Of a stretch of 64,000 bases of DNA, positions 11,555-29,190 are shown piece after piece (position 1 is the first letter of the stretch; every line of letters starts with the position of its first letter). The translations under genes and the position numbers were made by a program. A model generated the notes under the pieces. It did no database searches. It was given only the letters and a program-made list of their open reading frames with translations, and had not been told where the DNA came from. This stretch comes from an uncultured Planctomycetia bacterium (lineage in GTDB: Bacteria; Omnitrophota; Gorgyraeia; Gorgyraeales; Gorgyraeaceae), in assembly GCA_964415355.1 (NCBI GenBank), contig CAYPYS010000001.1:1361-65360 (forward strand), read 5' to 3'.

Positions 11555-11565
11555 ATTTTCCCCAC

Positions 11566-12782: not shown

Positions 12783-14281
12783 TGCCTCAATGCCCCAAAA
12801 ACCACAGTTACATAATCTTTGCCTGTCAGCACTGCGTCTTCAGCGACTTTTAGAAAATCACTATAAACCATTGGCAATAGCATAACTCCGCCTACTATGC
12901 AGATAATCGCCAGCACCACCATTGAAAACTTCATGAAAAACGGCACTTCCTTTACCTTGCTCAGCTTTTCTTTTAATTCTCCGAGAAAACCATATCTCTG
13001 GACTTTCATGAAGGAAGCTAGCGTCAATATGCTCGCCAGTACGGCCCATGCCGCATAACCAAAATGATTGGCCTGAACGCACGCGACAATGATAATAAGC
13101 TTGCTCCAGAATCCATTAAAAGGCGGAATGCCCGCGATAGACATAGACGCGATCATGCTCGTACCTGCCGTGACAGGCATGCGCTCTTTAAGCCCGCCCA
13201 TCTTTTGCAGGTCCCTTGTCCCCGTGGAATATTCGACTGCTCCTGAATTTAAAAACAAAAGAGACTTAAACACTGAATGATTAAATAAATGAAACAAACC
13301 TCCTAAAATCCCGAGCGGCGTGCCCAGGCTAATGCCAAGCACGACATATCCTATCTGGCTCACAGAATGATACGCAAGAAGCCTCTTAAAGTCCCACTGC
13401 CCCAGCGCAAGACACACGCCAATGATCATAGACAGCGCGCCAAGCATCATAAACACACTCAACACCTCGCCGGTCACCCCTATGACGCTGAAAAATATCC
13501 TAATGAGCGCGTATACGCCTAGGGATTTAATAAGAATGCCTGACAGCATCGCGGATATAGGGGCTGGCGCAGAAGGGTGCGCATCAGGAAGCCATGCATG
13601 AAAAGGAACCAGGGCTGCCTTCAGTCCAAAACCCATTAAAAAGAAAACACTGGCCAGGAGCACAATAGAGGAGCTCCCTTTATCGATAAGTTCCATTGAC
13701 ATATCAGCCATATTCAACGTAGAGGTATAACTATACATAAATACAATGCCCAATAATATAAAGGAAGAAGCAACCGTGCCCATAACCGCATACTTAAATG
13801 ACGCCTCGAGCTCTTCCTGCTCAGTTCCAAATGCGACAAGCGCGTAACTCGCGATAGCAGCGATCTCAAGAAAAACATACATGTTAAACATGTCGCCGCT
13901 TATCACCACGCCGTTCATGCCAGCGACCACCAATAAGAAAAGACAATAAAAAACCCACTTTTCAGTGAATTTCTCCATATAGTTAATGGAGTATACGCTG
14001 ATTAAAAACGCGATCAGGTTCACAGTGACCAGCATAAGCACTGTGAGCCCATCCATGACCATTGATATCCCGATAGGCGGCAGCCAGCCACCGACTTTAT
14101 ATACAATCACGCCGCTCTCTTTAAATAAAAATATAGAATATATCGATATAACAGCGAGCGCAAAAGTCGCCACGCCAGACAATATATCCGAAAGCCCTTT
14201 TATCTTCTTCCCAATAAGGGAATTCAGAAACGCGGCGCCGAGCGGTATTATAATGAATAATGGCAATAAATGCTGGGTCAT
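12779..14281 (-). CDS. proton-translocating antiporter-like subunit (MrpD/NuoN/MbhH-like)
   Basis: 500-aa protein with ~14 TM segments. FHAWLPDAHPSAPAPISAML is the conserved complex-I antiporter motif. Confidence 0.8.
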   Translation of the reverse strand: MTQHLLPLFIIIPLGAAFLNSLIGKKIKGLSDILSGVATFALAVISIYSIFLFKESGVIVYKVGGWLPPIGISMVMDGLTVLMLVTVNLIAFLISVYSINYMEKFTEKWVFYCLFLLVVAGMNGVVISGDMFNMYVFLEIAAIASYALVAFGTEQEELEASFKYAVMGTVASSFILLGIVFMYSYTSTLNMADMSMELIDKGSSSIVLLASVFFLMGFGLKAALVPFHAWLPDAHPSAPAPISAMLSGILIKSLGVYALIRIFFSVIGVTGEVLSVFMMLGALSMIIGVCLALGQWDFKRLLAYHSVSQIGYVVLGISLGTPLGILGGLFHLFNHSVFKSLLFLNSGAVEYSTGTRDLQKMGGLKERMPVTAGTSMIASMSIAGIPPFNGFWSKLIIIVACVQANHFGYAAWAVLASILTLASFMKVQRYGFLGELKEKLSKVKEVPFFMKFSMVVLAIICIVGGVMLLPMVYSDFLKVAEDAVLTGKDYVTVVFGALRQ

Positions 14282-14285
14282 ACGA

Positions 14286-14624
14286 TTAACCTTTTAGCTT
14301 TCGTATCTTCGTAATGTCGAACGTGCCGTATTTCTCATACACCCTCATCGCAATCGCCGCTATAAGAGCAGTAACTGCAAGCCCTATGACTATAGCGGTC
14401 AGGACCAATGCCTGCGGAAGAGGGTCTACCATGTCAATTACTGTCTGGTCAGGAGAATGGATCGGCGCGCGGCCATTCATCTTGTAGCCCACAAGAATAA
14501 AAAACAGGTTCACAGCGTATTCCACTATGGCTATGCCTATAATGATCTTTATAAGATTCCTCTTTCTGAGGATACAATAAAGACCTACGCAAAAAAGTAT
14601 TAGACAAAGAAAATAAACGCTCAT
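14286..14624 (-). CDS. Mrp subunit C / NuoK-like membrane subunit
   Basis: 112-aa protein with 3 TM segments, NuoK/MnhC-like. Confidence 0.65.
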   Translation of the reverse strand: MSVYFLCLILFCVGLYCILRKRNLIKIIIGIAIVEYAVNLFFILVGYKMNGRAPIHSPDQTVIDMVDPLPQALVLTAIVIGLAVTALIAAIAMRVYEKYGTFDITKIRKLKG

Positions 14625-15106
14625 TTCTCTTCAGACCCTCTATCGATTCTCAAAAGCACAAGAGTAACCACTATAATAAACAGTCCCGAGCCTACTTTAA
14701 AGGCGATCGCAATATTGGATAAAGGTATCAGGCCAGAGCTAAAAAGCCTGAAAAGTTCTCCCTTGGCTGCAAAATTCAAAAAGAAATATCCGCCGGTTGC
14801 CAGCCCAAGGATACCAATGGTAATAAACATTATCGCGCCCAAGCTCTCGAAAAATGAAGCTACCTTCTGGTCCACTTTTTTAAAAGCTGCTTCTTTTCCG
14901 AACGCCAGCATGATGTGTATAAAAGAGAGCGCTATGATCACGCCACCTGCGAATCCGCCGCCAGGGCTTATGTGGCCGTGCGCGACGATGTACACGCCGA
15001 AAAGCAGTATCAGTCCCACTGTCAACCGCGTGATCGTCTTTACTATTAGTGTCATTCCCTTTTCTTGCTCTCTCATAAAACTGCCCCTAACTTTACTTTT
15101 CAACAA
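14621..15106 (-). CDS. Mrp subunit B-like (MnhB domain)
   Basis: MnhB-like (HGHISPGGGFAGGVIIA). Confidence 0.65.
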   Translation of the reverse strand: MLKSKVRGSFMREQEKGMTLIVKTITRLTVGLILLFGVYIVAHGHISPGGGFAGGVIIALSFIHIMLAFGKEAAFKKVDQKVASFFESLGAIMFITIGILGLATGGYFFLNFAAKGELFRLFSSGLIPLSNIAIAFKVGSGLFIIVVTLVLLRIDRGSEEK

Positions 15107-15125
15107 TGTTAAAATGTAAAGTTAC
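15087..15125. repeat. 39-bp repeat, copy 10 (A-like variant)
   Basis: CTAACTTTACTTTTCAACAATGTTAAAATGTAAAGTTAC lies between Mrp genes inside the operon. Confidence 0.85.
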
Positions 15126-15640
15126 TTCTTTCTGCCTACCCGCCGCATTACGGCGAGAACTCCGATCACGGCCGTAAAGAGGATCGTGGCCTCTCCCAAA
15201 GTATCATATGCCCGGTAATCCAGGACAACCGAGCTCACCAGGTTGGTCGCGCCTGTCTCTCTCATGCCGTGCGTTAAATAATTATGCGCTACTTTCATTA
15301 TTGGCTTGCCAAACTCCGGCAGGCCCTTTAAGCAATAATATCCAAAGGCCAAAAACGCGCCTATAAATATAAAAGCTATGATCGTATTAAAGAACCAGCG
15401 TCCGCTCGTAGAAAAAGGTAAATCTCTTTTGATGGTCGCCCTTATCAATATAATCACGCACAATATCTCGACCACGAGCTGAGCCATAGCCAGGTCCGGC
15501 GCCTTCAATATCAGAAACGCGAGTGACAGCCCAAGCCCTACCACGCCAACCGCAATAACAGAGGACAAAAGATCCTTGGCGTGCACAGCGATCAACGCGC
15601 CGACTATCATGAATATTAAAAGTATGTTTAACTCAAGCAT
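15122..15640 (-). CDS. MrpA C-terminal / MnhB-related membrane subunit (MbhD/E-like)
   Basis: The polytopic protein ends in ...GATNLVSSVVLDYRAYDTLGE, which is MnhB-domain-like. Confidence 0.55.
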   Translation of the reverse strand: MLELNILLIFMIVGALIAVHAKDLLSSVIAVGVVGLGLSLAFLILKAPDLAMAQLVVEILCVIILIRATIKRDLPFSTSGRWFFNTIIAFIFIGAFLAFGYYCLKGLPEFGKPIMKVAHNYLTHGMRETGATNLVSSVVLDYRAYDTLGEATILFTAVIGVLAVMRRVGRKK

Positions 15641-15651
15641 GTCTCATAACC

Positions 15652-17439
15652 TCACATCACGATAACGAAAAAGAACACCAGCATCCCCAGGATACACCAG
15701 GCCAGATACGTGGGCAATACGCCATTATGCAAATACCTGAATATACCTATAAAGAAAAACACGAGTCTTTTGCCCTGGTCGTAAATATCAAAAACCTTTC
15801 TCTCTGCCTTGGCATAAATGCTTCTAAGGAACGGCAGCTCCTTTATTGTACCATAAAATTCTGTGCCGGAAAGTCTCATATCTTTTCCGGTCTCTTCCCC
15901 GCCTATATAGCAATCCGTCTCTCTAACGCCTTTAAAATTACCCAATAAATAAATCAAAATACCAGCGCCAAGGCCTACAACTAAATAAAATGTGGCGCGC
16001 AGGGACGGCCAGCTTCCGACAAAACCAAACCTCTCGGTCAGCGCAGGCAATACAAGATATTTCAAAGGAATTACATAGGCGAACACGCCAAAGACGATAC
16101 AAAGAACCGCCAGGATCACCGGAGGAAGCCACATGGTCCAATGGACTTCATCGCGCTGGCCTGTCTGTCCATCTTTAGATTTACCTAAAAATATCGCGTG
16201 TATGAATTTTATGAATGACGCGAGGGTCAGGCCGCTCCCGAACATCGCTGCTATTATGCAGAATATCCACAGCGCCCCTCCGGACTTCCCGCTCTCTACC
16301 AAACCTTGATAAACCATCCATTTTGAAAAAAATCCGTTAAAAGGCGGCACGCCGGATATCGCGAACGAGGAAACCAGCGTCGTAAAAAATGTCACTGGCA
16401 TAATTTTTGCGAGACCACCTAGAGAATCGAGATCCGATGTCTTTGCCTTATGTTCTACATTGCCGCCTGATAAAAATAAGCAACTTTTGTATATCGCGTG
16501 ATTGATCATATGAAAAAGCCCGCCTGCTATGCCTATAGGATTCCCGGTGCCAATGCCGAGCACCATGTAACCTACCTGGCTCACCGCGTGATAACCCAGG
16601 AGTTTTTTGAAATCGTGCTGCACGAGCGCCATCATAACAGCCGCTATTATAGTGACAGCACCCACCACCATCAGAATAGCGTGGCAAAGCGCGTTCAATA
16701 TAAATATGTGGAGAACCAATCTTGCCAATAAGTAAATGCCTAGAAGTTTATCAAGGCTGGCTGGTAAAAATGCTGTCACCGGCATAGGCGCGTCTTTTGC
16801 TGTATCTGGTATCCAGGAATGAAAAGGCATGGCCCCTGCCTTTGCAAGCGCTCCTATTGTTATCAATAAAAATGCCCAGAAGGCCTGAGGATTATCTACG
16901 GCGATCTTTATATTACTCAGGCTCATATTGCTTGTAATAAGCCACATGAGCGCAAAGCCCAGGACCATGAGGCTGTCTGAGCCGCCTATTATAATAAAGG
17001 TCTTTTTGCTCGTGGCTGCTGCCTTTGGCCCAGATATGTTGATCAACATATAAAGCGTAAAACCCAAAAGGCCCCACGCCACAATAAGCAGCGCCATGTT
17101 ATTGGAAATCGCGGCTAGTATCGAAAGGCCTATGGTCCATATTGTATACGCGTAATACGAGCGCAGCTCTCTGTACGCTGACATAAAACGTAGCGAATAC
17201 ACTGTCACAAGCGCGCCAAAGAATCCCACGCCAATCACGATAAACCTGGAAAGGCCGTCTAAGTATAAAAATTCCCCCTGATACTGCGCCAGAAGAAATA
17301 TCCTAACGCAAGCCGCTGACAGATATATAGAGGTAACAACGCTAAAGCCCTCTATCACCCTCTTCAGCTTTTTAGGGATCAAGAAAATCACGCATCCCGC
17401 GAGTATCGATATTATTATCGGCTGCAATAAAACCTTCAT
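15652..17439 (-). CDS. NuoL/MrpA/HyfB-like antiporter subunit
   Basis: 595 aa. FHSWIPDTAKDAPMPVTAFL is the NuoL-type motif. Confidence 0.8.
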   Translation of the reverse strand: MKVLLQPIIISILAGCVIFLIPKKLKRVIEGFSVVTSIYLSAACVRIFLLAQYQGEFLYLDGLSRFIVIGVGFFGALVTVYSLRFMSAYRELRSYYAYTIWTIGLSILAAISNNMALLIVAWGLLGFTLYMLINISGPKAAATSKKTFIIIGGSDSLMVLGFALMWLITSNMSLSNIKIAVDNPQAFWAFLLITIGALAKAGAMPFHSWIPDTAKDAPMPVTAFLPASLDKLLGIYLLARLVLHIFILNALCHAILMVVGAVTIIAAVMMALVQHDFKKLLGYHAVSQVGYMVLGIGTGNPIGIAGGLFHMINHAIYKSCLFLSGGNVEHKAKTSDLDSLGGLAKIMPVTFFTTLVSSFAISGVPPFNGFFSKWMVYQGLVESGKSGGALWIFCIIAAMFGSGLTLASFIKFIHAIFLGKSKDGQTGQRDEVHWTMWLPPVILAVLCIVFGVFAYVIPLKYLVLPALTERFGFVGSWPSLRATFYLVVGLGAGILIYLLGNFKGVRETDCYIGGEETGKDMRLSGTEFYGTIKELPFLRSIYAKAERKVFDIYDQGKRLVFFFIGIFRYLHNGVLPTYLAWCILGMLVFFFVIVM

Positions 17440-18632
17440 CTATTCTTCCTTAACTTACGTGAGCGTCTCAAACGCTCTGTCTTTTCCTGGGAAAGCCGGA
17501 GAAGATCCTGGCCATCCATGATCTTCTTGCCTGTCTTGTGATCTACAACAGCGGTTCGCTCTGTGCAGCAATAACACGGGTCCACTGCCGCGAGTATTAT
17601 AGTTGCGTCGGAAATCGTATGTCCCACCACTGCCTTTTTGTTCGAGGCTACATTCATATAGCTCGGTGCCCTGACTTTATGACGAGCAGGGCTGTTACCG
17701 CCGTCTGACATAATGTAGTGAAATACCTCGCCGCGCGGCGCCTCGTGCCTGCCAATGCCCTCTCCTACAGGCATGTCCTTTATATTAAGGTCTATTTCGC
17801 CTTTCGGCATCTTATCTAGACATTGCAAAATAATATTGATCGACTCATAAAGCTCCAATATTCTCACGACTGCCTTTGCGAATACGCCGCCGCCTTCCTG
17901 CGTGATCACCTTCCAGTCTACCTTATCATACGCCGCATACGGATCATCTCTTCTCACATCAATGCTCACGCCTGACGCCCTCGCAGTAGGCCCGACTACA
18001 GAATAATCATGTACATCCTGCCTTGTCAATGCGCCAATGCCCTCTGTCCTCGCTCTTATCACAGGGTCATCGATAACCGCTCCTTTAAACATGTCGACTT
18101 TCGGGATCAGACCCTTAAGCATCTTTCTGATCCACGGAAAATCTGCTTCATCCATATCCCTTCTTACGCCGCCTGGCTTGAACATTGCGTAGTGCTGCCT
18201 GTTGCCTGTGACCCTTTCAAAGATATCCAGCACCGGCTCTCTATATTTCCACGCCCACATCCACACAGTATTGTAACCCAAAAAGTGCCCTGCGAGTCCA
18301 ACCCACAAAAGATGACTATGCACCCTCTCAAGTTCACCTATAATAGTGCGGATATAAAGCGCTCTCTCAGGGACCTGGACCCCCAAAAGATCATCGATCG
18401 CGTTAGTATACGCAAAAGGATGCGAGGTAGAACAGATCCCGCAGATCCTCTCCACTAAAAACGTGACCTGGTCATAACTCTTGGACTCCGCTATCTTCTC
18501 GATAGTCCTATGGTTATATCCGATCTCTATATCCATATCCACTACTGTCTCACCGTCCACGTGCAATTTAAAAAATTCCGGCTCTTCCTGCAGCGGGTGA
18601 TATGGGCCTATTGGTATGATCTTATGCGACAT
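17436..18632 (-). CDS. [NiFe] hydrogenase large (catalytic) subunit, group 4 (NuoD-like; MbhL/EchE/HycE-like)
   Basis: The N-terminal Ni-Fe ligand motif RICGICSTSH and the C-terminal DPCYCCTERTAVVDH are both present. A ~34-aa C-terminal extension follows, consistent with HycI processing. Confidence 0.9.
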   Translation of the reverse strand: MSHKIIPIGPYHPLQEEPEFFKLHVDGETVVDMDIEIGYNHRTIEKIAESKSYDQVTFLVERICGICSTSHPFAYTNAIDDLLGVQVPERALYIRTIIGELERVHSHLLWVGLAGHFLGYNTVWMWAWKYREPVLDIFERVTGNRQHYAMFKPGGVRRDMDEADFPWIRKMLKGLIPKVDMFKGAVIDDPVIRARTEGIGALTRQDVHDYSVVGPTARASGVSIDVRRDDPYAAYDKVDWKVITQEGGGVFAKAVVRILELYESINIILQCLDKMPKGEIDLNIKDMPVGEGIGRHEAPRGEVFHYIMSDGGNSPARHKVRAPSYMNVASNKKAVVGHTISDATIILAAVDPCYCCTERTAVVDHKTGKKIMDGQDLLRLSQEKTERLRRSRKLRKNR

Positions 18633-19067
18633 CTACTGGTCTCTCCTTAGGGGATAATTTTCCTTTGGCCAATCGTCTTTCAACAAAAGGTGTGTCAGGT
18701 TCGGATGCCCCTTGAAATTCACGCCTAACAATTCGTGTATCTCTCTTTCTATCCACTCAGCGCACTTTATTATAGAGGTAAGGCTTTCCGCTTCAAGATT
18801 GGGCTTATCCAATATTATTCTCAACGAAACAATAAGCCCTATTTCATCGATTGAAAAATGATAAAGTATCTCTATCGCCTTTCTTGTGTCAACGCCAGAG
18901 GCTGTCGAAAACCTGGCCTTGACGTCGCTAAAAAGATACTTTGCTATCTTGGGTAATATCTCTTTTTTGATAGTTACATAGACGCGTTTTTCTGACCTGT
19001 CATTCAAATCCAAGAGGTCTTTCCCAGCGCGCACCTTTATATTCTCTATTATCTCGAGTCTTTTCAT
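18633..19067 (-). CDS. NuoC-like (30-kDa) hydrogenase subunit (MbhK-like)
   Basis: Complex I 30-kDa domain (EREIHELLGVNFKGHP). Confidence 0.75.
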   Translation of the reverse strand: MKRLEIIENIKVRAGKDLLDLNDRSEKRVYVTIKKEILPKIAKYLFSDVKARFSTASGVDTRKAIEILYHFSIDEIGLIVSLRIILDKPNLEAESLTSIIKCAEWIEREIHELLGVNFKGHPNLTHLLLKDDWPKENYPLRRDQ

Positions 19068-19489
19068 TTCTTTCCTGTAAGCTTTCCTATTAATTTAACA
19101 ATACCTGCTATCATCGCCTCTGGCTTAGGCGGACATCCTGGAATATAGATATCTACCGGAAGCACTGAATCAACGGGATATGGCGTATTTGGCCCGTTCG
19201 CAAAAATCCCCTGACCGCAAGAGCATGCGCCGATTGCGATCACCACGCATGGCTTTGGGGCCTGCTCATAAACAGCCTTTACTCTCGGTATTGTCTTCAG
19301 ATTCAGGGCACCTGTCACAAGTATGGCGTCAGCATGCTTCACGCTCCCCACAAGCATTATGCCGAATCTTTCGACGTCGAAGCGCGGAGTCAAAAGATCC
19401 AGTATCTCTATGTCGCAATTATTGCAGCTGCCTGTCGAAAGGTGATACACCCAGATCGATTTTGTTAATGCCTTTAGCTTTAAACTCAT
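19064..19489 (-). CDS. [NiFe] hydrogenase small subunit, NuoB-like (MbhJ/EchC-like)
   Basis: CNNCDIE...GACSCGQGIF...GCPP gives the proximal 4Fe-4S ligands. Confidence 0.85.
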   Translation of the reverse strand: MSLKLKALTKSIWVYHLSTGSCNNCDIEILDLLTPRFDVERFGIMLVGSVKHADAILVTGALNLKTIPRVKAVYEQAPKPCVVIAIGACSCGQGIFANGPNTPYPVDSVLPVDIYIPGCPPKPEAMIAGIVKLIGKLTGKK

Positions 19490-19512
19490 GCTCTTCTTTA
19501 GTTCAACTGCTC

Positions 19513-19550
19513 CTAAGTTTACACTTTAACGTTGTTGAAATGTAAAGTTA
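19513..19550. repeat. 39-bp repeat, copy 11 (B)
   Basis: It lies between the NuoH-like and NuoB-like genes. Confidence 0.9.
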
Positions 19551-20453
19551 CATCCCCATCGTAGCCAGTATAACTGCGATTATAGCTATAGCTGTCATCT
19601 TTCTCCAGAAAAATCTCACTGCCTGATCTATCCTCACGCGAGGATTCGTGTTCCTGATTAAAGTTATCAGCACCAGTAACACAACGTACTTCCATATGCT
19701 AAAACCACCCCACAGTATCGTGATCAAAAATACTGGCAACGCGACCAGCATCATTGTCTTTGTAAGTTTTAATATTGCAAGCAATATCCCCGAGTATTCT
19801 ATCTGTATTCCTCCCATTATCTCTGTCTCTGCTTCTGCCATATCAAAAGGCACAAGGCCTAGTTTTGCCTGCATGCAGAATATCGCTACCAATAGCGCCA
19901 GGATCCCGGAAAAACTTGCGACAAAAGACCCGTTTGCTGCCTGATAGGCGATAAGTTGCTCAAACCTCAGAAATCCGCCACTCTTAATGATCGGGATAGT
20001 AAATATTATAATAAACGGCAATTCATAAGCCAGGAGAAGCTTGATCTCTCTCGATATGCCCACGGATGCAAGCGGATTGCCGCTGGAAGACGCGCCTATT
20101 ATCAGGGCGATCGCCGGCAAGGTCAATAGATATAAGACGACTATCATGTCACCCGTAAAACCATTGCTCCCTATATTTAGATTGGGCAGCCATATAAAGG
20201 TAGAGGCCAATATGACCGCGCTGAGTCCGACTAAAGGCGAAAGCATAAATGTAAGCTTTGAGGCACCGCGCGGCACAGTGATCTCTTTTATACTCAGTTT
20301 CACCAGGTCAATAAACGGCTGATACCATGGCGGGCCCACTCTCCACTGGACGCGCGCTGTGACCTTGCGGTCGATCCAGCTCGCCACCAGGCCAATGGCC
20401 GCCGTAAAAATAAAACCTGGGAATATCAGGAAATTAAATAAATTTTTTACCAT
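19548..20453 (-). CDS. NuoH-like membrane subunit (MbhM/HycD/EchB-like)
   Basis: WIDRKVTARVQWRVGPP is the NuoH signature. Confidence 0.8.
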   Translation of the reverse strand: MVKNLFNFLIFPGFIFTAAIGLVASWIDRKVTARVQWRVGPPWYQPFIDLVKLSIKEITVPRGASKLTFMLSPLVGLSAVILASTFIWLPNLNIGSNGFTGDMIVVLYLLTLPAIALIIGASSSGNPLASVGISREIKLLLAYELPFIIIFTIPIIKSGGFLRFEQLIAYQAANGSFVASFSGILALLVAIFCMQAKLGLVPFDMAEAETEIMGGIQIEYSGILLAILKLTKTMMLVALPVFLITILWGGFSIWKYVVLLVLITLIRNTNPRVRIDQAVRFFWRKMTAIAIIAVILATMGM

Positions 20454-20459
20454 AATCCT

Positions 20460-20942
20460 CTACGGGTGGTACTTTTTCCACTGTTTCGCGTGAACCGCGA
20501 TCCTGTCACTTACCAGATGTATGTCGTCTTTTTCCGATTCCTTTACCTCTATATACTTTGCCGCGCCTTCAATGGAGCAGGTCCTTGTGCAGAGCGGTGC
20601 TTCTTTGTCAGCCCTGTCTATGCATGCGTCGCATTGCGAAATAATATAAGGCACTGTCTCGATAGGGATCACTCCAAACGGACACGCGTGACTGCAAGAC
20701 TTACAGGATATACAGCGCATAGTGTAGCGCTTTACCACGCCGTCCTCTTGTTTCTCGAGTGCATCTTTCGGGCAAGCGTTAACGCACGGCGCATCCTCGC
20801 ACCTCCTGCATATATGCAAAAATTGCGCGATCTCTCTCAGGCGAGTCACGCCGTCATTTTCAGGGTGGTAGTAGTAGCTGCACTCGGCCGTAGGCCGCTC
20901 GCAACTATACAATTTCTCAACATCTATCAGCAATTTCTTCAT
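20460..20942 (-). CDS. 4Fe-4S dicluster ferredoxin-type electron-transfer subunit (HycB/CooF-like)
   Basis: Several Cys clusters are present (CRRCEDAPCVNACP, CISCKSCSHACP). The start is moved past the repeat-derived MLKCKVRRGE extension. Confidence 0.65.
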   Translation of the reverse strand: MKKLLIDVEKLYSCERPTAECSYYYHPENDGVTRLREIAQFLHICRRCEDAPCVNACPKDALEKQEDGVVKRYTMRCISCKSCSHACPFGVIPIETVPYIISQCDACIDRADKEAPLCTRTCSIEGAAKYIEVKESEKDDIHLVSDRIAVHAKQWKKYHP

Positions 20943-20952
20943 CTCACCCCTC

Positions 20953-20991
20953 CTAACTTTACATTTCAACAACGTTAAAATGTAAAGTTAA
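20953..20991. repeat. 39-bp repeat, copy 12 (A)
   Basis: It lies between the AsrB-like gene and the ferredoxin gene. Confidence 0.9.
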
Positions 20992-21000
20992 GCTCCTGCA

Positions 21001-21825
21001 CTAATCCCAAATCTCATGGATATTGCTTATCTTGTCATAACTAAACACGGGCCCGTCTTTGCACACATAATAATCCCCAAGCCTGCAATGCCCACATTTA
21101 CCAAACCCGCAGCTCATGTTTTTTTCCATTGACAGATATATCTGTTTCTCTTTATAGCCTATATCGATCAACTTGAATGTCGCAAACTTCATCATTATAG
21201 GCGGACCGCACACCACTGCGACGCTATTCTTCAGATTGATTTTCAATTTATCCAAAGTAGTCGTTACAAGTCCTACCTTACCCTTCCACGCATCATCCTT
21301 CTTATCGACTGTGACCCTGAAATCAACCCTCTTGTCTATTTTCTGCCATTTATCTAATACATTATCTTTGTAGATCATATCAGACGGCGTCCTGGCTCCG
21401 CAGCAAAAGGTTATACCTTTATATTTATTCAGGTCGTGGACCAACGCCAGGAATAAGGCTCGAAGCGGTGCCAACCCCACGCCTCCTCCTACAAGCAGGA
21501 TCTCCTTGCCCTCAAATTCATTAAGAGGATACTCAACTCCATACGGACCTCTCAGCCCCACTGTATCGCCTTTTTTCAAATCATGTATCTTAGAAGTCAC
21601 TCTCCCGACATTCATGACAGTAACTTCCAGTTTGCTCTTTTGATGAGGCGATGATGAAGGAGTAAACGGCGCTTCGCCCAAGCCGGGGATAGTCATCTCG
21701 ATAAACTGGCCTGCCTTAAAGTGTAAAGGTTTCTCGGTCTTGAACGATAAAGTCTTGATAGTAGGGCTTTCCTTTACAACGTCCACTACTTCGCTCTTTA
21801 TAGGTATATAAGGGTTTTCTATCAT
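21001..21825 (-). CDS. FAD/NAD(P)-binding oxidoreductase subunit with C-terminal [2Fe-2S] (AsrB / sulfhydrogenase gamma / PyrK-like)
   Basis: A ferredoxin-reductase fold is followed by CGFGKCGHCRLG. Confidence 0.7.
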   Translation of the reverse strand: MIENPYIPIKSEVVDVVKESPTIKTLSFKTEKPLHFKAGQFIEMTIPGLGEAPFTPSSSPHQKSKLEVTVMNVGRVTSKIHDLKKGDTVGLRGPYGVEYPLNEFEGKEILLVGGGVGLAPLRALFLALVHDLNKYKGITFCCGARTPSDMIYKDNVLDKWQKIDKRVDFRVTVDKKDDAWKGKVGLVTTTLDKLKINLKNSVAVVCGPPIMMKFATFKLIDIGYKEKQIYLSMEKNMSCGFGKCGHCRLGDYYVCKDGPVFSYDKISNIHEIWD

Positions 21826-22841
21826 AGCTTACTCAGAACTTCTTGAATTTTTATTTTACCAGGACACGCATCCGAACACCTGCCGCAACCAGTGCAGCCA
21901 AATCTTCCGATAAAGTTAGGAAAAAAATTAAATTTCTTATCAAATCGGTTCCTAAGGCGCTGCGCTAACAATTTTCTTGGATTTGCGTTCCCCGCGACCC
22001 TTGCAAAGGACATCAGGAGACAGGAGTCCCATAATCTCAGCCTCTCAAAGGCCTCTTCCGTCGGCTGGTCTTTTAAAATAAAACAATGGCATGCCGGACA
22101 GATCACGTTGCAGGCACCACACTCAACGCAGGTCTTGGAAGTCTCTTCCCAGAGGTTCGAATCAAAGCTTTTCTTAAAACGATTCTGGATAGACTCTTTG
22201 GCCGGTATCTTTTTTTTGTGCACATGTTCTATCAATGCCTCTTTCAGCTTCCTTCTCGCCTCTTCTTTTCTTTCTATATAAAGATCCGCTGTCTGGAACA
22301 GCTTGGCGTAATCTCTTATTATTTTTTCCCCTTTTTCAGAACCCACCTCTGCCACATAGCCGCTTCCCATCTCTGACAGGTTCATGTCAAAATCTTCGGT
22401 GGGATACGGCATTATGCCCAGGCCAACACAAAAACAACTGTCGCCGAAAGACCCGCAGTCACTGGAAATCACAAGGCCTTCTTCTCTCTGAGCGATATAA
22501 AACGGGTCCTTAAAAGATTCCTGCTTAAACACATAGTCCATCACTTTCAACGAAGCCAGGTCACATGACTTCGCGCCGATTATAGCTACAGGCCTGGATC
22601 TTTTCCCAGATATTTTTTCAGTAAAGTAATCGCCTACTTTTGCTCGGGCAGGAAAATAAAAACTTTTTATGCTCTGGACAGAACGAAATTCGCCGATGAT
22701 AGCATCCCCAAGCCCTTCGTCGCCCATCTTTTTATAATGTCTATGCTCGCCTGATTTTACAGGTAAGTAGACTCTATATGCCTTGGAAAGGGATCTGACT
22801 AATCTATCGAGGTTGGGTCTGTTTATGAAATACTTGTCCAA
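21822..22841 (-). CDS. 4Fe-4S subunit (AsrA / sulfhydrogenase beta-like)
   Basis: CVECGACNVICPACHC and CTGCGRCSDACP motifs are present. The gene overlaps the AsrB-like gene. The start is TTG with AAGG 9 nt upstream. Confidence 0.65.
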   Translation of the reverse strand: MDKYFINRPNLDRLVRSLSKAYRVYLPVKSGEHRHYKKMGDEGLGDAIIGEFRSVQSIKSFYFPARAKVGDYFTEKISGKRSRPVAIIGAKSCDLASLKVMDYVFKQESFKDPFYIAQREEGLVISSDCGSFGDSCFCVGLGIMPYPTEDFDMNLSEMGSGYVAEVGSEKGEKIIRDYAKLFQTADLYIERKEEARRKLKEALIEHVHKKKIPAKESIQNRFKKSFDSNLWEETSKTCVECGACNVICPACHCFILKDQPTEEAFERLRLWDSCLLMSFARVAGNANPRKLLAQRLRNRFDKKFNFFPNFIGRFGCTGCGRCSDACPGKIKIQEVLSKL

Positions 22842-23033: not shown

Positions 23034-23441
23034 TTAAAAATGCAGCTCCATTGCGCGAGGCGGACATGCCTTTATACATAATTCACAGGCTATGCATTCG
23101 GCATTATAAAAATTGACCTTGCGCGTCACTGGATCGATTACAAGCGCGTTCGTCGGACATATCGGAACGCATGCGCCGCAATGCGTGCATTTTTCCTCAT
23201 TCCTCTTTATATCCTTGGAAAGCGGCTGCACTGTCACGCCCAGAGATTTTACAAAATTTATGGCCTTGTCAAAATTTTTCTCTGCGCCAGTCACCTCGAG
23301 GACAAGAAGCCCCTCTTCTTTTGGCGTAACATGTGCCTTTAATATATTAAACTGCAGATCATGATCCTTTACCATCCGGTAAATAATAGGCTGATCCACA
23401 AGTCTATGCGGAAACTTAAATACGATCCTCTTTGAAACCAT
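23034..23441 (-). CDS. 2x[4Fe-4S] ferredoxin with N-terminal NIL-like domain
   Basis: CTHCGACVPICP and CIACELCIKACP motifs are present. Confidence 0.6.
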   Translation of the reverse strand: MVSKRIVFKFPHRLVDQPIIYRMVKDHDLQFNILKAHVTPKEEGLLVLEVTGAEKNFDKAINFVKSLGVTVQPLSKDIKRNEEKCTHCGACVPICPTNALVIDPVTRKVNFYNAECIACELCIKACPPRAMELHF

Positions 23442-23455
23442 GCTCCCCTCCCTCT

Positions 23456-23494
23456 CTAACTTTACATTTCAACAACGTTAAAGTGTAAAGTTAG
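23456..23494. repeat. 39-bp repeat, copy 13 (A)
   Basis: It lies between the UPF0280-like gene and the ferredoxin-NIL gene. Confidence 0.9.
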
Positions 23495-24222
23495 GCGAGC
23501 TCGATATCTCCCAATACGCCAAGATCCTTACCGTAGATTATCAATGCGCCCCGTACACCTTTAATAGAAATAGCGAACGCGAGCGCATCTCGAATATCTT
23601 GTTTTTTCTTTACTTTATTGCAAGCAGCGGTCGCTACCGCGTCTGCTAAAGATGTTGATTTAGCTATTATAACACAGGCATCTGCTTTTCCAAAGCTCAA
23701 AGAATGCCCGACCGTGCCGGACGAAGTGCATATACCTAGAGGCGTTTGTTTCGCTTTTATCTTTATAAAAACCTTGTTTGAGAGCGGCGAATCGCCCGCA
23801 AATACTGAAACAGTACGCATTGCGTCTGACTTTATAAATATATCGCCGCCATTCTCTACTATAATCTGTTTTGAGCTAGATAAAAGTTGTTTCCCTGCGT
23901 ATTCCGCAATAGCCCCGGCCACGCTTGCCATCGGACCTACTCCTGCCAAATCAGAAGACCGCATCATCTCCTTTATAATATCTGGCGCAGATGGATCCAG
24001 CTCTAACGGCTTAAGGCTCGTTTCGAATTCAGGATGTCTTTTTATGTAAGACTCTATCTCGTTTCTGTATTTTTTTACTATTTCCTGGGCGATTTCCCGT
24101 ATTTCATTTTCCGCGTATACAAGAATATCGGTCTCGCCTACCGTGATCTCCTGCGCAATGAGATCCTTGCCCTTGCTCCATCTCCTATAAAATCTCTCCT
24201 GATATCCCCTTTTTTTTGCCAT
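23491..24222 (-). CDS. UPF0280-like hypothetical protein
   Basis: I recognise no confident family. It lies between the ferredoxin and the hyp genes. Confidence 0.4.
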   Translation of the reverse strand: MAKKRGYQERFYRRWSKGKDLIAQEITVGETDILVYAENEIREIAQEIVKKYRNEIESYIKRHPEFETSLKPLELDPSAPDIIKEMMRSSDLAGVGPMASVAGAIAEYAGKQLLSSSKQIIVENGGDIFIKSDAMRTVSVFAGDSPLSNKVFIKIKAKQTPLGICTSSGTVGHSLSFGKADACVIIAKSTSLADAVATAACNKVKKKQDIRDALAFAISIKGVRGALIIYGKDLGVLGDIELA

Positions 24223-24233: not shown

Positions 24234-24272
24234 CTAACTTTACATTTCAACAACGTTAAAGTGTAAAGTTAG
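24234..24272. repeat. 39-bp repeat, copy 14 (A)
   Basis: It lies between hypA and the UPF0280-like gene. Confidence 0.9.
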
Positions 24273-24610
24273 GCGATCTCGATTGAGTCAACGTAAATAC
24301 CTGAGCCAGAAATAATATCTGCGATCTTGCTATTGCAAACAGGGCACTCTAAGTCGCCCACGCAAAAGAACTCAGCCTGGCAGTTTTTACATTTAAACTT
24401 TGCCTTTATTTTTTTGAAATCCAATTCTACGGCGGCAAGAGGCGTGTCTTTTGTCCTCTCCCTGAAATGAAACTCAAAGTGACCCGGGCTAACATGCTCC
24501 AGCTCGCCTATTGCTATATTGATTTTTTTAAGCCTCGAGCCTGCTTTTGCTTCTTTTAATTTGGCATTGATCGTACAAATTATATCATCTACTAATCCTA
24601 TCTCGTGCAT
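24269..24610 (-). CDS. hypA: hydrogenase nickel-insertion protein HypA
   Basis: The MHE N-terminus and the CKNC...CPVC zinc site match HypA. Confidence 0.85.
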   Translation of the reverse strand: MHEIGLVDDIICTINAKLKEAKAGSRLKKINIAIGELEHVSPGHFEFHFRERTKDTPLAAVELDFKKIKAKFKCKNCQAEFFCVGDLECPVCNSKIADIISGSGIYVDSIEIA

Positions 24611-24623: not shown

Positions 24624-25622
24624 CTAGCATATACGGGGGAACTGTTCGCCTCTTAACATGTCCAATATCCGTGTCCCGCCTATCTTGGTCTTTAAATAAA
24701 CTTTTTTGTCTTTTTGCTTCGTAACCTCTCCTATGACCTTGCTATTGCTCCCAAGCGCATGCCTCTTCAGCTTTGACAATATCTTCGAAGCAGATCTATC
24801 GGAAACAACAAGTACTACCTTGCCTTCGTTCGCCATATATAAAGGATCGAGCCCTAAAATCTCGCACAGCTCCCTTACTGACTCTTTTACAGGAAGCTGC
24901 GACTCCTCTATATATATATTGCGGCTGGACTCTATAGCCACCTCGTTTAGGGTAGTGGCGAGCCCTCCTCTTGTCGGGTCTCTCATAAATCTAACATCTG
25001 GACACAGAACAGAAGACACCAGGTCATTGACTGGCGCACAATCGCTAAAGATCCTTGATTCGAATTTCAGCTCTTCTCTCGCAAGAAGCACTGCTGCGCC
25101 ATGGTCGCCTATTGTACCGCTTACAATAATTTTATCGCCAGGCCTGATGCGATCGAGCGACAATCTAGATTCTTTAAGTATCTCGCCAAACCCGGATGTA
25201 TTTATGAAAATTTTATCCACTGCACCTTTTTCAACGACCTTAAAATCACCCGTAACTATATTCACGCCCACCTTCTTGCACGTGTTTTTCATAGACAATG
25301 TTATTTTCTCCAGGTCTTTATAATCAAACCCTTCTTCGACGATCATGCCACAGGATAGATACCTTGGCCTGGCACCGCATACAGACAAGTCATTCACAGT
25401 GCCGCACACAGCTAATTTTCCTATGTCGCCGCCTGGAAAAAATATCGGGTCAATGACAAAGGAATCAGTAGTATATGCGACTTTTCGGTTTCCGGTGTCT
25501 ATAAGCGCAGAATCTCCTAATTTATTTAAGTAAGAATTGTTCAGATTCTTCACGAATAAATCCTTTATCAGATCTTGCATCAGGCTTCCGCCGCTTCCAT
25601 GGGATAAAGTTATTTTTTTCAT
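24624..25622 (-). CDS. hypE: hydrogenase maturation protein HypE
   Basis: AIR-synthase-like fold with the C-terminal PRIC motif. Confidence 0.9.
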   Translation of the reverse strand: MKKITLSHGSGGSLMQDLIKDLFVKNLNNSYLNKLGDSALIDTGNRKVAYTTDSFVIDPIFFPGGDIGKLAVCGTVNDLSVCGARPRYLSCGMIVEEGFDYKDLEKITLSMKNTCKKVGVNIVTGDFKVVEKGAVDKIFINTSGFGEILKESRLSLDRIRPGDKIIVSGTIGDHGAAVLLAREELKFESRIFSDCAPVNDLVSSVLCPDVRFMRDPTRGGLATTLNEVAIESSRNIYIEESQLPVKESVRELCEILGLDPLYMANEGKVVLVVSDRSASKILSKLKRHALGSNSKVIGEVTKQKDKKVYLKTKIGGTRILDMLRGEQFPRIC

Positions 25623-26707
25623 CGTCTGTATTTAAAATACGCGGCGCACGTTCCTTCGCTAGAGACCATGCACGCGCCTACTGGTTGCTCAGGAGTGCAT
25701 TTTTTGCCAAATAACTTGCAATCAAATGGGACCTTTGCACCTTTAAGCACGCTGCCGCATATACAACCTACATCGGGCTTTGTTTTTATTCTTGCTAATG
25801 AAAATTCTTTTTCAGGGTCGAACATGGAATAATCTTTATTCAACTTCAGCCCGCTTTTTCCAATCTCGCCTATGCCGCGCCATTCTGTATCCTGAACAGA
25901 AAAAACCCTATCCATCAAGCGAAGCGCTTTTTCATTGCCTTTTCTCCTGACCACTCTTTTATACTGGTTCTCTACCTTTGCTCTCTTCGATTCGATCTGC
26001 TTTACAAGCATTAAAATACCCTGTAAAACATCAAGAGGTTCAAAACCAGCTATGACGCAAGGTATATTATATTTTTTGGCGATTGCTTCGTAAGGCGACA
26101 TACCTATAATAGTGCTTACATGCGCAGGACACAAGAATCCCTGTATGTTCACCTCGCGATCCTCCACCAAGGCCTTCATTGCGGGAGGTATTATTTTATG
26201 TCCGGCAAAGACAAAAAAGTTTTTGAGCTTTTTCTTTTTTGCATAGACCAATGTCACTGCCACAGTTGGAGTCGTGGTTTCAAAGCCTACCCCTAAAAAT
26301 ATTATTTTTTTATCAGTGTTTTTTTCGGCAATGTCGACAGCATCCAGCGGAGAATATACGACTTTGACAGATGCGCCTCTTGCCTTTTCCTCTATAAGAC
26401 TGGAATACGAACCGGGCACTCTCATCATATCCCCAAAAGTCGAGATTATTGTCTGCGGGAGCCCGGAAAATGCTATTGCCTTGTCTATGTAACTCTTCGG
26501 AGATACGCAGACAGGACAACCAGGTCCTGAAATAAGATTTATATTCTCGGGAAGCAGTTTACGAATACCAAACTTACAGATAGACATGGTATGCGTACCA
26601 CATACCTCCATCAGGTTTACAGCCTTTAGACCTTTGGCAGTGGCAAAAATAGCCTTTGATATCTTTTTGGCAATCCTATTATCACGAAACTCATCTATAT
26701 ATTTCAT
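25619..26707 (-). CDS. hypD: hydrogenase maturation protein HypD
   Basis: The CGTH and GPGCPVC motifs are present. Confidence 0.9.
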   Translation of the reverse strand: MKYIDEFRDNRIAKKISKAIFATAKGLKAVNLMEVCGTHTMSICKFGIRKLLPENINLISGPGCPVCVSPKSYIDKAIAFSGLPQTIISTFGDMMRVPGSYSSLIEEKARGASVKVVYSPLDAVDIAEKNTDKKIIFLGVGFETTTPTVAVTLVYAKKKKLKNFFVFAGHKIIPPAMKALVEDREVNIQGFLCPAHVSTIIGMSPYEAIAKKYNIPCVIAGFEPLDVLQGILMLVKQIESKRAKVENQYKRVVRRKGNEKALRLMDRVFSVQDTEWRGIGEIGKSGLKLNKDYSMFDPEKEFSLARIKTKPDVGCICGSVLKGAKVPFDCKLFGKKCTPEQPVGACMVSSEGTCAAYFKYRR

Positions 26708-26710: not shown

Positions 26711-26917
26711 CTATAATTCCGAAAGCATGCGAAGAGTTTCTTCTGCTTTCTCTGGGTTAAGCTTTTCTATTGCAAAGCCAGCGTGCACCATTACATAATC
26801 CCCTATCTTTGGACTGGCCAAAAAATTTATCGCGACTCTGCGCTGCACGCTCCCAGCAGAAACAAGTGCCCTGTCCCCTTCTATTTTTAATATTTTCATC
26901 GGTATTGCCAGGCACAT
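26711..26917 (-). CDS. hypC: hydrogenase maturation protein HypC
   Basis: The protein starts MCLAIP. The track's upstream extension MTKEIY is discarded. Confidence 0.85.
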   Translation of the reverse strand: MCLAIPMKILKIEGDRALVSAGSVQRRVAINFLASPKIGDYVMVHAGFAIEKLNPEKAEETLRMLSEL

Positions 26918-26964: not shown

Positions 26965-27002
26965 TTAACTTTACATTTTAACGTTGTTGAAATGTAAAGT
27001 TA
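26965..27002. repeat. 39-bp repeat, copy 15 (B)
   Basis: It lies between hypF-C and hypC, next to GC hairpin copy 3. Confidence 0.9.
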
Positions 27003-28107
27003 AAACTGCCTGGCCAAGCGCGATGCCGCCGTCGTGCGTTGGAACCCTGTCGTGCAAATACAGCTCGAACCCTGCTGTTTCCAAAATAGGTTTAATGTGG
27101 CTTACCAGGAACTTATTCTGAAACACCCCTCCGCTCAAACAAACTTTATTTATTTTATATTTTTTTCTAAGCAATTCACAAACATCCTTTATCATATGAC
27201 AAACTGCATTATGAAATTTCAATGAGATTTCTGTCTTGCTTTTTTTGTTCTGCAGATCTTTAACAATACCTTTGATAAGAAGTTCCCAGTCTATAATAAT
27301 CTTATCTTTGTCTATATACTTAAATTTATAGAACTCATTGCCGAGGCCTCCTTTTATCGACCTCTCTAATTCTATCGCTGCCTGGCCTTCATACCCTGCA
27401 ACGCTGCAAACTCCTATAATCGAGGAAACTGCATCAAAAAGCCTGCCAATACTTGAAGTCAAAGGCGAATTTATTCTTTTTTCTATGGCTTGGATCAAAA
27501 GATTGACTCTTCTTTTGTCCTGCTTCTTCAAAAAATCTATCTTCAAAGTCTTGAAGCCTGGACCAAATACACTATAAAGATAACTCAAGCCCATTCGCCA
27601 AGGCTCTCTGATCGATGCCTCCCCTCCTGGCATAGGCAGATATTTTAAATGAGCTGTCCTCTTGAATCCTTTTATATTACCTATAAAAAACTCTCCTCCC
27701 CACGCCTCTCCGTCAAGACCAAAACCTGTCCCGTCAAAAGATACGCCTATAACGTCTCCCTTGACGTTGTTATCGACTATGCAGCTGGCTATATGGGCCT
27801 CGTGATGCTGGATCTGTTTTATCCCGCATCCTCCGCGTCTCATAATGTCTTTTGCTAACTTAGAGGAAATATATTCAGGATGCAGATCGCATGCGACGAT
27901 ACCTGGTTTAATCTTCAATTTTCTCTGCAAAGATTTTATGTTCTTCTCAAAAACATTCAAATCTTCCAGACTACTTAGATCTCCTCCGGAACGCGACAGA
28001 TACATAGCCCTGCCCCTGGCAAAGCAAAAGCTACTTTTTGATTGAGCGCCTAATGCGAGAATATTAGAGCTTATTTTACGCAATAAATTAATTTTGATAT
28101 AATTCAT
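26971..28107 (-). CDS. hypF: HypF-like carbamoyltransferase, Kae1-like C-terminal domain only (no acylphosphatase, Zn-finger or YrdC domains)
   Basis: ILALGAQSKSSFCFARG...DLHPEY...QIQHHEAHIAS...GVSFDGTGFGLDGEAWGGEF matches the HypF C-terminal domain. The start is moved to MNYIKI past the repeat-derived MLKCKLRCSLQ. Confidence 0.7.
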   Translation of the reverse strand: MNYIKINLLRKISSNILALGAQSKSSFCFARGRAMYLSRSGGDLSSLEDLNVFEKNIKSLQRKLKIKPGIVACDLHPEYISSKLAKDIMRRGGCGIKQIQHHEAHIASCIVDNNVKGDVIGVSFDGTGFGLDGEAWGGEFFIGNIKGFKRTAHLKYLPMPGGEASIREPWRMGLSYLYSVFGPGFKTLKIDFLKKQDKRRVNLLIQAIEKRINSPLTSSIGRLFDAVSSIIGVCSVAGYEGQAAIELERSIKGGLGNEFYKFKYIDKDKIIIDWELLIKGIVKDLQNKKSKTEISLKFHNAVCHMIKDVCELLRKKYKINKVCLSGGVFQNKFLVSHIKPILETAGFELYLHDRVPTHDGGIALGQAVLTLHFNNVKM

Positions 28108-28120
28108 TTGCAGCGAGCAC

Positions 28121-28159
28121 CTAAGTTTACACTTTAACATTGTTGAAATGTAAAGTTAG
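28121..28159. repeat. 39-bp repeat, copy 16 (B)
   Basis: It lies between the MetE-like gene and hypF-C. Confidence 0.9.
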
Positions 28160-29190
28160 GATAAATTATCTTTTGCCAGCCTGGAGACAATAGAGAGTTT
28201 TTTGATTATAACCTCTGTAAGATCCTGAGAAAGAGTTCCCATCCCACAACTAGGCGTGATTAAAGAGCGGGATATCAATAAATCCCGCGGAATGCCTTTT
28301 CCTTCCAATTTTCCTATTTCTGACGACAGTTTCTGAAAAAGAGAATCCTCTGAGTCCTTTAAAGCTGCTTCGGAAGTGGGAATCTGGCCCCACGCAAGAT
28401 AACCGCCTCTTTTTAAAAATTTCGTTATCTCTCCCGGATACAGCGAAAGCCCTTCGGCATAAGAATAGGCGTCAAAATTTATAATATCCACGTTCGTCTC
28501 TGCGAGAAGCGACCAGTCTGTATTGCCGCAGCAGTGAATACCGCTCAAGGCCCCTTTCGAATGAACCTTATCTATGAGGGCATTCAGCATCAATACGATA
28601 TCCTTCCTCTCAATGTTTACAAAGCTAGAGCCAAAACTAGTAAGGTACGGCTCGTCTATAAATATAATAATATTTTTAAAAACACTGCTCAACTTGTCTA
28701 TTTGCCAGGAAGTCTTTATCTCCAGAAGCTTGACCAGGGCATCTCTAAGCGTCTCGTTATATATGATAGACCTCCCTTTTTCGTCAACAACGCTAAGGCC
28801 AAAACTAACAGGGCCTGTAACATGGCCTTTTACATAACCGGGATTAAATTCTCTGGCAATATCCATAAACGCATAGAGCCCTTCTGCGATATCCTTTGAA
28901 AGACCAAGTGGGTCGTAATTATTGGACATATAGACTTCATACAGCTTGCCCAGGTCCTCGCTTAGATCTTTAGTGCTGTCAACATATATCCTTCTATTCT
29001 CTGCATCTATAACCAGCGACGGCAAACCATTGGCAAACTGGACATACATGTTCTCTTTAAAACCTCTCTTTGGAAGTTGAGGCCAAAATGGTATGTCGAA
29101 TTTAGCGCACGTAATCCTAGCGCTTTCCGAGGCATCGGTATACGGTAAGCTTCCTATTCCAGTTGTGAGAAATTTTCCTTTTATCTTCAT
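28156..29190 (-). CDS. cobalamin-independent methionine synthase (MetE) catalytic-domain-like / UroD-superfamily protein
   Basis: TTGIGSLP is the MetE C-domain start motif. IFIDEPYL and HCCGN motifs follow. The protein is 344 aa. Confidence 0.5.
   Translation of the reverse strand: MKIKGKFLTTGIGSLPYTDASESARITCAKFDIPFWPQLPKRGFKENMYVQFANGLPSLVIDAENRRIYVDSTKDLSEDLGKLYEVYMSNNYDPLGLSKDIAEGLYAFMDIAREFNPGYVKGHVTGPVSFGLSVVDEKGRSIIYNETLRDALVKLLEIKTSWQIDKLSSVFKNIIIFIDEPYLTSFGSSFVNIERKDIVLMLNALIDKVHSKGALSGIHCCGNTDWSLLAETNVDIINFDAYSYAEGLSLYPGEITKFLKRGGYLAWGQIPTSEAALKDSEDSLFQKLSSEIGKLEGKGIPRDLLISRSLITPSCGMGTLSQDLTEVIIKKLSIVSRLAKDNLS

Follow-up and report, generated by a model that had tools for sequence, protein, structure and literature searches.

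A stand-alone Kae1-like form of HypF in the hyp operon of an uncultured Omnitrophota bacterium and its relatives

How can a hydrogenase maturation operon make cyanide ligands with a HypF that consists of the C-terminal domain only? In the textbook model six Hyp proteins (HypA to HypF) are needed, and HypF channels two labile intermediates through three sites of one polypeptide. The question is raised by a 64-kb stretch of DNA from an uncultured bacterium of the Omnitrophota (contig CAYPYS010000001.1 of assembly GCA_964415355.1, positions 1,361 to 65,360; 64,000 nucleotides, hereafter the window), in which hypF is found as follows:

26971..28107, minus strand: short hypF, 378 amino acids, a stand-alone Kae1-like (ASKHA) carbamoyltransferase domain

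In canonical HypF the acylphosphatase domain splits carbamoyl phosphate and the YrdC-like domain makes carbamoyl-AMP, while an internal channel between the three sites shields the labile carbamate and carbamoyl-AMP (PMC6022934, PMC12134894). The short HypF of the window is a genuine protein, which is common to a clade and not peculiar to one genome.

An earlier note, made from the letters of this DNA, had described the protein as HypF reduced to its Kae1-like C-terminal domain, and the domain scans bear this out. Pfam finds only HypF_C (PF17788; residues 25-123, 99 bits) and HypF_C_2 (PF22521; residues 132-377, 280 bits; both in the numbering of the 389-amino-acid reading frame). There is no acylphosphatase domain (PF00708) and no zf-HYPF zinc finger (PF07503) in the Pfam scan, and no YrdC-like adenylation domain (PF01300) in the Pfam or NCBIfam scans. 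The hypF model TIGR00143 is matched at positions 382-739 of 741 only, with a score of 280.8 bits, which is under the cutoff of 466.1, and the match to Caldanaerobacter HypF (3vth_A, 287 bits) covers residues 393-745. The protein is not TsaD/Kae1 itself (TIGR03723: 30 bits vs a cutoff of 296; TIGR00329: 31 vs 208). The Kae1-like motifs (Q)HHxAH, DGTGxG and DGG are present, and all the motifs quoted in the earlier note (ILALGAQSKSSFCFARG, DLHPEY, HHEAH and DGTGFGLDGEAWGGEF) can be read in the sequence.

Concerning the start of the gene, the open reading frame (ORF) extends over 26971..28140 on the minus strand (389 amino acids), when read from its first ATG, at 28140. The start was placed at the second one, at 28107, because the relatives share the N-terminus MxYxKIxLP..., which is conserved in an alignment of 47 relatives; the resulting 378 amino acids agree with the span 26971-28107 and the length of about 380 residues proposed earlier. 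The stop codon (TAA) of the preceding gene closes the hypF frame five codons before the first possible ATG, so an N-terminal extension is impossible. The Joint Genome Institute (JGI) gene call for the same hypF (locus L001, 10001-11035) starts at an internal Met, giving 344 amino acids, and cuts into HypF_C; the conserved N-terminus indicates that the start at 28107 is correct and the later JGI start is not.

The identical HypF protein was called on six contigs, and the four that are shown belong to four different JGI samples. The closest 120 clusters at 90% identity (47-100% identity to the protein of the window) are all short, with lengths from 294 to 432 amino acids and a median of 378. Both Pfam domains are found in all but one of these clusters, and the N-terminal domains of HypF in none of them. 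Where an organism is named, it is Candidatus Omnitrophota/Omnitrophica in all cases except one, labelled 'bacterium'. A wider search covered 1.84 billion cluster representatives at 50% identity, of which the best 150 were inspected; about 45 of them have 356-409 amino acids, QHHxAH at residue ~88-112 and the same start point. HypF partials from contig ends differ from these, as their lengths are evenly spread between 430 and 630 amino acids.

The gene order short hypF-hypC-hypD-hypE is seen in six related loci (L005, L007, L009, L016, L097 and L102), and the order short hypF-hypC-hypD also in L008, where the contig stops within hypD. None of these seven loci shows an N-half or hypB within 10 kb. 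L007 comes from a relative with 47% identity, and the short hypF of L102 has 40% identity. In every hyp operon examined in the Omnitrophota-type clade, the short form is the sole hypF. A search of genome contigs with the single protein gave 7 loci, 3 of them Omnitrophota-type, which are too few for statistics. A search of metagenome contigs with the family alignment (patterns [IV]QHH[EHK]AH[IV] and FDGTG[FYL]GxD) gave 80 loci, 79 of which are full-length HypFs of other lineages, because the patterns are universal HypF motifs; these 80 loci were reused as positive controls for the profile searches described below and for the conservation analysis.

The AlphaFold2 (AF2) model of short HypF alone (predicted local distance difference test, pLDDT, 93.9; predicted template modelling score, pTM, 0.92) predicts that the protein folds as a stand-alone domain. 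Compared by Foldseek with the Kae1-like domain of 3vth and 3vti (HypE-HypF complex), the model gives TMq 0.91-0.93 and a root mean square deviation of 1.3-1.4 A. Based on the C-halves of 70 full-length HypFs, 53 alignment columns are at least 95% conserved; short HypF is identical at 52 of them, including Q100, H101, H102, A104, H105, D125-G126, D132, W136 and D359, and 48 of the 53 are at least 90% kept over the short-HypF family. Judging from these columns, the Kae1-like domain of short HypF is under strong purifying selection for normal function.

The lone differing column is residue 103 (window positions ~27799-27801), where QHHHAH is changed to QHHEAH. QHHHAH is found in 67 of the 70 full-length controls (96%) and also in HypF1 of Cupriavidus necator. 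Of the 120 closest clusters 91 have glutamate at this residue, as against only 5 of the roughly 50 short forms among the wider representatives. QHHEAH was rejected as a mark of truncation: it is a clade-specific trait independent of truncation, since 28 of these roughly 50 short representatives have His at the variable residue.

Downstream of hypF, the other hyp genes of the operon are arranged as follows:

26711..26917, minus strand: hypC (PF01455, TIGR00074), true start MCLAIP..., N-terminal Cys
25619..26707, minus strand: hypD (PF01924, 518 bits; TIGR00075, 508 bits)
24624..25622, minus strand: hypE (TIGR02124, 470 bits), C-terminus ...FPRIC with the cysteine that HypF carbamoylates
24269..24610, minus strand: hypA, nickel metallochaperone (PF01155), not followed by hypB

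The other proteins of the cyanide pathway (HypC, HypD and HypE) look intact from their sequences. The presence of hypA, hypE, hypD and hypC without hypB had been pointed out earlier for the cluster, and the searches extend the absence of hypB to the whole window. A profile hidden Markov model (HMM) of the N-half of HypF (acylphosphatase, zinc fingers and YrdC) was built from four full-length HypFs, and an HMM of HypB was seeded with C. necator HypB1. Both were run against six-frame ORFs of at least 40 amino acids from the window and from 11 related Omnitrophota-type loci with 10-kb flanks (L001-L010 and L016). Among the metagenome controls, the N-half HMM recovered about 75 of the 80 loci at E<=1e-24 (most of them at <1e-100), and the HypB HMM found HypB within 10 kb in 27 of about 80 loci with full-length HypF. 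Neither the N-half nor HypB was found at E<=10 in the window or in the 11 related loci, and tblastn for both over the window, independent of ORF calling, gave noise only. The only P-loop gene near the hyp operon is BioD (TIGR00347, 170 bits). The Pfam scans covered the window ORFs from 437 to 47851, minus a few small ones; those between 47991 and 63996 were judged by eye alone and look like pilus/secretion and two-component genes. High nickel rescues hypB mutants of Escherichia coli, and HypB is therefore helpful without being strictly required; its gene could also lie at another place in the genome.

As short HypF can only be the third site of the canonical enzyme, the best-supported reading is that of a stand-alone transferase fed with external carbamoyl-AMP. 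On sequence and model together, we consider it probable that the protein is a functional stand-alone Kae1-like carbamoyltransferase ('HypF-C') supplied with carbamoyl-AMP from outside, with an architecture like that of C. necator HypF1 but of independent origin. We infer a supply in trans, for which the synthesis of N6-threonylcarbamoyladenosine (t6A) offers an analogy. Carbamoyl phosphate would be converted to carbamate, and carbamate and ATP to carbamoyl-AMP, by something encoded outside the window; candidate donors are an enzyme of the YrdC/TsaC family that works in trans, in the manner of TsaC with TsaD for t6A, or a second, full-length HypF. HypE, with its C-terminal PRIC, would then perform the dehydration to thiocyanate, from which CN would be delivered to HypCD, and nickel would be inserted by HypA alone or by a GTPase encoded elsewhere. 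The earlier note had proposed either carbamoyl adenylate from elsewhere or a non-canonical route, and the literature reasons in the same way about HypF1, the one Kae1-only HypF studied so far, which retains a single domain of the canonical enzyme and likely needs carbamoyl adenylate (PMC9100943).

Several points weigh against a transferase fed from outside. We know of no Kae1-only HypF with demonstrated biochemical activity. Supply in trans is chemically awkward, because both intermediates, carbamate and carbamoyl-AMP, are labile and normally pass through a channel inside one polypeptide. No candidate donor enzyme is present in the window or in the 10-kb flanks of the 11 related loci, and the 'in trans' part is drawn from this absence, as the search covered the window and these flanks only. 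Also, complementation of an E. coli hypF mutant with C. necator HypF1 was unsuccessful (PMC5350229).

A first alternative is that the genome holds a full-length HypF, or a separate half with the acylphosphatase, zinc-finger and YrdC domains, at another place, and that the short protein only assists it or makes up the other part of a split enzyme. We regard this as unlikely. C. necator offers a precedent, since its megaplasmid pHG1 holds both HypF1 and a full-length hypF; in addition, a full-type partial HypF (P0271) has been binned to Omnitrophica, and the full-length HypF of locus L017 is sister to some of the short forms in a neighbour-joining (NJ) tree. P0271 lies on a 3.4-kb contig with no tie to a genome carrying the short form. 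The halves of a fissioned gene are normally adjacent, but an N-half within 10 kb is found in 0 of the 11 Omnitrophota-type loci. When stand-alone N-halves were searched for with the N-half of L017, the nearest full-length relative, the best 120 matches were mostly partials from contig ends, and P0271 was the single one labelled Omnitrophica. In two long contigs of the European Nucleotide Archive (L100, 6001-8284, and L101, 6001-8404) the N-half ORF has a C-half ORF immediately after it. Since neighbouring genes in L101 (LytB and FolD) are split too, both cases look like products of long-read frameshifts and were rejected as natural stand-alone N-halves. The Omnitrophota metagenome-assembled genomes (MAGs) from Ace Lake have a single identifiable hydrogenase each (PMC8542988), and this lowers the likelihood of a second hyp set.

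A second alternative, which we hold to be improbable, is that short HypF is self-sufficient and the N-half dispensable: the HypE thiolate would attack carbamoyl phosphate itself, or adenylation would take place in the ASKHA site. This would suit a form that is widespread and the sole hypF in every operon of the clade examined, with no N-half within 64 kb. Carbamoyl phosphate is already an activated donor for N-transcarbamylases (PMC6022934), crystal structures show nucleotide binding at the Kae1-like site of HypF, according to the same source, and CarAB is encoded by Omnitrophota MAGs. The active site is, however, nearly the same as in full-length HypFs, so no new chemistry is visible; the exchange of QHHHAH for QHHEAH follows the clade and not the truncation, and HypF1 by itself is inactive in E. 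coli.

A third alternative concerns the genes on the two sides of the hyp operon:

28156..29190, minus strand: MetE/UROD-fold Zn enzyme, 344 amino acids (AF2, Foldseek and Zn-ligand residues); not a part of HypF
23034..24222, minus strand: COG2122/UPF0280 (ApbE-like) gene (NF003323, 302 bits; PF27030) and NIL-ferredoxin gene (NIL and Fer4)
Related loci: homologues of the MetE-like gene in L005 (8917-9948), L016 (1245-2270) and L097 (8922-9953), 58-92% identity over the clade

The MetE-like gene upstream of hypF had been called unrelated and not a split N-terminal half in the earlier note. The second part stands, and the gene is indeed no part of HypF, but 'unrelated' does not do justice to a gene that is so closely kept beside short hypF in this clade. 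The protein scores 30 bits with the archaeal model PRK00957, which is weak, and has no Pfam match and no sequence match in the PDB; the top Foldseek matches of its AF2 model (pLDDT 91) are cobalamin-independent methionine synthases (MetE). The residues H219, C221, D240 and C315 are invariant in its family, and the H-C-D-C zinc site of the core methionine synthase MesB is formed by residues 214, 216, 235 and 311 (PMC7857596). MesB (Dehalococcoides DET0516) is similar in length (~340 amino acids), in having a single MetE-type barrel and in carrying the H-C-D-C site at nearly the same positions, a comparison made on the published ligand positions and the fold. The 344-amino-acid protein is thus most likely, by residues and model, a MesB-type core methionine synthase.

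The MetE-like gene adjoins short hypF in L001-L005, L008, L009, L016 and L097, and is also seen in L010, where the locus is cut off; the distance to short hypF, which it immediately precedes, is 6-52 nt in the window, L005, L008, L009, L016 and L097. The conserved block begins with this gene, since the DNA further upstream differs among the window, L005 and L097. At least 31 pairs of short-HypF and MetE-like clusters agree in the size of the longest contig, and in two pairs the NCBI locus tags directly follow each other, while the MetE-like gene was found beside full-length hypF in none of about 75 control loci. Distant homologues (45-49% identity) adjoin agmatinase and pyruvoyl arginine decarboxylase genes, with no hyp genes, and two short-hypF operons (L007 and L102) have no MetE-like neighbour. 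A homologue with 72% identity belongs to Ca. Gorgyraea, for which the Wood-Ljungdahl pathway has been reported (PMC8542988); Price et al. tie MesB to this pathway (PMC7857596). COG2122 and the NIL-ferredoxin are required for homocysteine synthesis (the DUF39 pathway) in Desulfovibrio vulgaris, and homologues are linked to this synthesis in Methanosarcina (PMC5764234); a look through the window showed no DUF39 gene. In a coherent reading of these sequences, genes of the methionine pathway flank the hyp genes on both sides, with a MesB-like gene on one and COG2122 and the NIL-ferredoxin on the other.

That the MetE-like protein, perhaps with COG2122 and the NIL-ferredoxin, stands in for the absent half of HypF or supplies a new route to the ligands would explain the tight synteny, the linked cluster and locus-tag pairs and the absence of the gene beside full-length hypF. 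This seems very improbable to us and was rejected as the main explanation: a MetE fold with a MesB-type zinc site means thiol methylation chemistry and not carbamoyl activation, the more distant homologues stand in an agmatinase/arginine decarboxylase context free of hyp genes, L007 and L102 do without the gene, and the homocysteine-synthesis neighbours and the Wood-Ljungdahl link of the Ca. Gorgyraea relative fit a methionine pathway. A truncation artefact, which the earlier note had allowed for, or a decaying pseudogene is practically ruled out, as only the unusual length speaks for it (the JGI call being even shorter) and it is refuted by the identical gene in the assemblies of four samples, the N-terminus conserved over the 47 relatives, the frame closed by the stop codon of the neighbour, the purifying selection seen in 52 of 53 key columns and the lack of any N-half remnant by tblastn.

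Having weighed these alternatives, we return to the transferase fed with external carbamoyl-AMP and to the enzyme it would serve. The client and its associated genes lie downstream of the hyp operon:

10952..22841, minus strand: group-4 Mrp-Mbh-type membrane [NiFe] hydrogenase, the client (Pfam)
10495..10944, minus strand: HycI-type large-subunit maturation endopeptidase (PF01750)
21001-22841, minus strand: two HydB/HydG-like Fe-S/flavin subunits preceding the Mbh module, one with Fer4_22, the other with FAD/NAD-binding and DHODB-type Fe-S domains

Both Ni-Fe cysteine motifs, RICGICSTSH and DPCYCC, are present in the large subunit (17436-18632), which also has an extension at its C-terminus. 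As an intact [NiFe] hydrogenase is found beside the hyp operon, the cell has a client which needs the Fe(CN)2CO cofactor. The genes at 21001-22841 resemble sulfhydrogenase beta/gamma or AsrAB subunits and are kept in L005 and L097; they may link the membrane hydrogenase to NAD(P)H.

Other features of the window and of the related loci were also recorded. The spacer between hypF and hypC (26918-26970, 53 nt) contains a small perfect hairpin, TTCCCGC-TTCC-GCGGGAA, with no T-run after it, and a similar CCGCGGGA element is found within the 3' end of the MetE-like gene (~28282-28289); the spacer hairpin might act in RNA stability or processing. On the minus strand, 34527-57363 is taken up by a large cluster resembling type II secretion / type IV pilus systems, with secretins of 499 and 908 amino acids (the larger with TPR repeats), two PilM-PilN fusions, pseudopilins, GspF, GspE and a 1061-amino-acid protein bearing lamin-tail and HHH domains. 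In L007, CbiM and a PDGLE-domain gene (1-551) are located directly upstream of Mbh-hycI-hypA-hypF(short)-hypCDE; they may form a Ni/Co uptake system and could thereby provide nickel in a lineage for which no hypB was seen. In L102 (10001-13485), short hypF and hypCDE are found amid rubrerythrin, desulfoferrodoxin and flavodiiron protein (oxidative-stress) genes, and no hydrogenase, hypA or hypB is present within 10 kb of short hypF; the short-HypF cassette therefore also exists apart from a client enzyme.

As to what the short form would mean, it is conceivable, although somewhat doubtful, that the Kae1-like domain is the sole HypF-related protein in the genomes of a large anaerobic Omnitrophota clade and of other uncultured lineages. 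If so, the half with the acylphosphatase, zinc-finger and YrdC domains, together with the channel, would not be universally required for the synthesis of the cyanide ligands, and either an unrelated or housekeeping enzyme would make diffusible carbamoyl-AMP or the Kae1 domain would use carbamoyl phosphate directly. HypF1 of C. necator could be dismissed as a degenerate duplicate, because it is inactive in the E. coli hypF mutant and has a full-length copy alongside; the short HypF of the Omnitrophota, being conserved, the sole hypF of its operons and accompanied by an anaerobe-type group-4 client, points to a real, selected mode of action. It also weighs against the suggestion that carbamoyl adenylate exists only in aerobic cells (PMC9100943). 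The compact hypFCDEA set makes the question of which enzyme makes carbamoyl-AMP a testable one, and calls of 'partial HypF' in the annotation of MAGs can be genuine. No mention of HypF in Omnitrophota was found in the literature, no hyp genes are listed in the supplements of the paper on the Ace Lake Omnitrophota, and truncated HypF is not taken up in a 2025 review on the assembly of the [NiFe] cofactor (PMC12134894).

Looking at the known systems, the C-terminal Kae1-like domain is shared with canonical HypF (TIGR00143; 3VTH/3VTI of Caldanaerobacter, 3TSP of E. coli and 4G9I of Thermococcus kodakarensis). In comparison with it, the short form is without the acylphosphatase, zinc-finger and YrdC-like domains, which means the loss of two of the three active sites and of the channel. 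In the t6A system, TsaC/Sua5 (of the YrdC family) and TsaD/Kae1 are separate proteins, between which a labile acyl-adenylate passes. The likeness is that of a separate adenylate-forming enzyme and a Kae1-type transferase, a model for supply in trans, whereas the acceptor and the adenylate differ (tRNA A37 and threonylcarbamoyl-AMP for t6A, a protein cysteine and carbamoyl-AMP for HypF).

The closest known counterpart is HypF1 of C. necator (Ralstonia eutropha) H16, encoded at 10034-11218 of pHG1, which has 394 amino acids and, as here, the Kae1-like domain only. By BLASTP, residues 13-369 of HypF1 align end to end with residues 14-367 of short HypF at 30% identity, so the architecture of short HypF is already known and is not of a new kind. 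Both genes are placed directly before hypC-hypD-hypE. The operon of HypF1 has hypB and hypX, whereas that of the window is without hypX and has no hypB in 64 kb; the two also differ in the motif (QHHHAH in HypF1, QHHEAH in the clade of the window) and in the client, here an anaerobe-type group-4 hydrogenase. Three HypF-like places were found on pHG1 by tblastn, two of which were inspected (HypF1 and a full-length hypF); pHG1 thus carries HypF1 and at least one full-length hypF, whereas the short form here is the sole form among the closest relatives. In the NJ tree, which is a rough one, HypF1 groups with the full-length HypFs of proteobacteria, and the short forms of the Omnitrophota nest among other full-length HypFs. 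As HypF1 is placed far from the short clade of the Omnitrophota, the truncation of HypF arose more than once, and by this sequence-based placement the short HypF of the Omnitrophota is a truncation independent of HypF1. What is known, then, is the architecture, from HypF1; what is new is an independently evolved version of it, which is the only form among the closest, mostly Omnitrophota, relatives.

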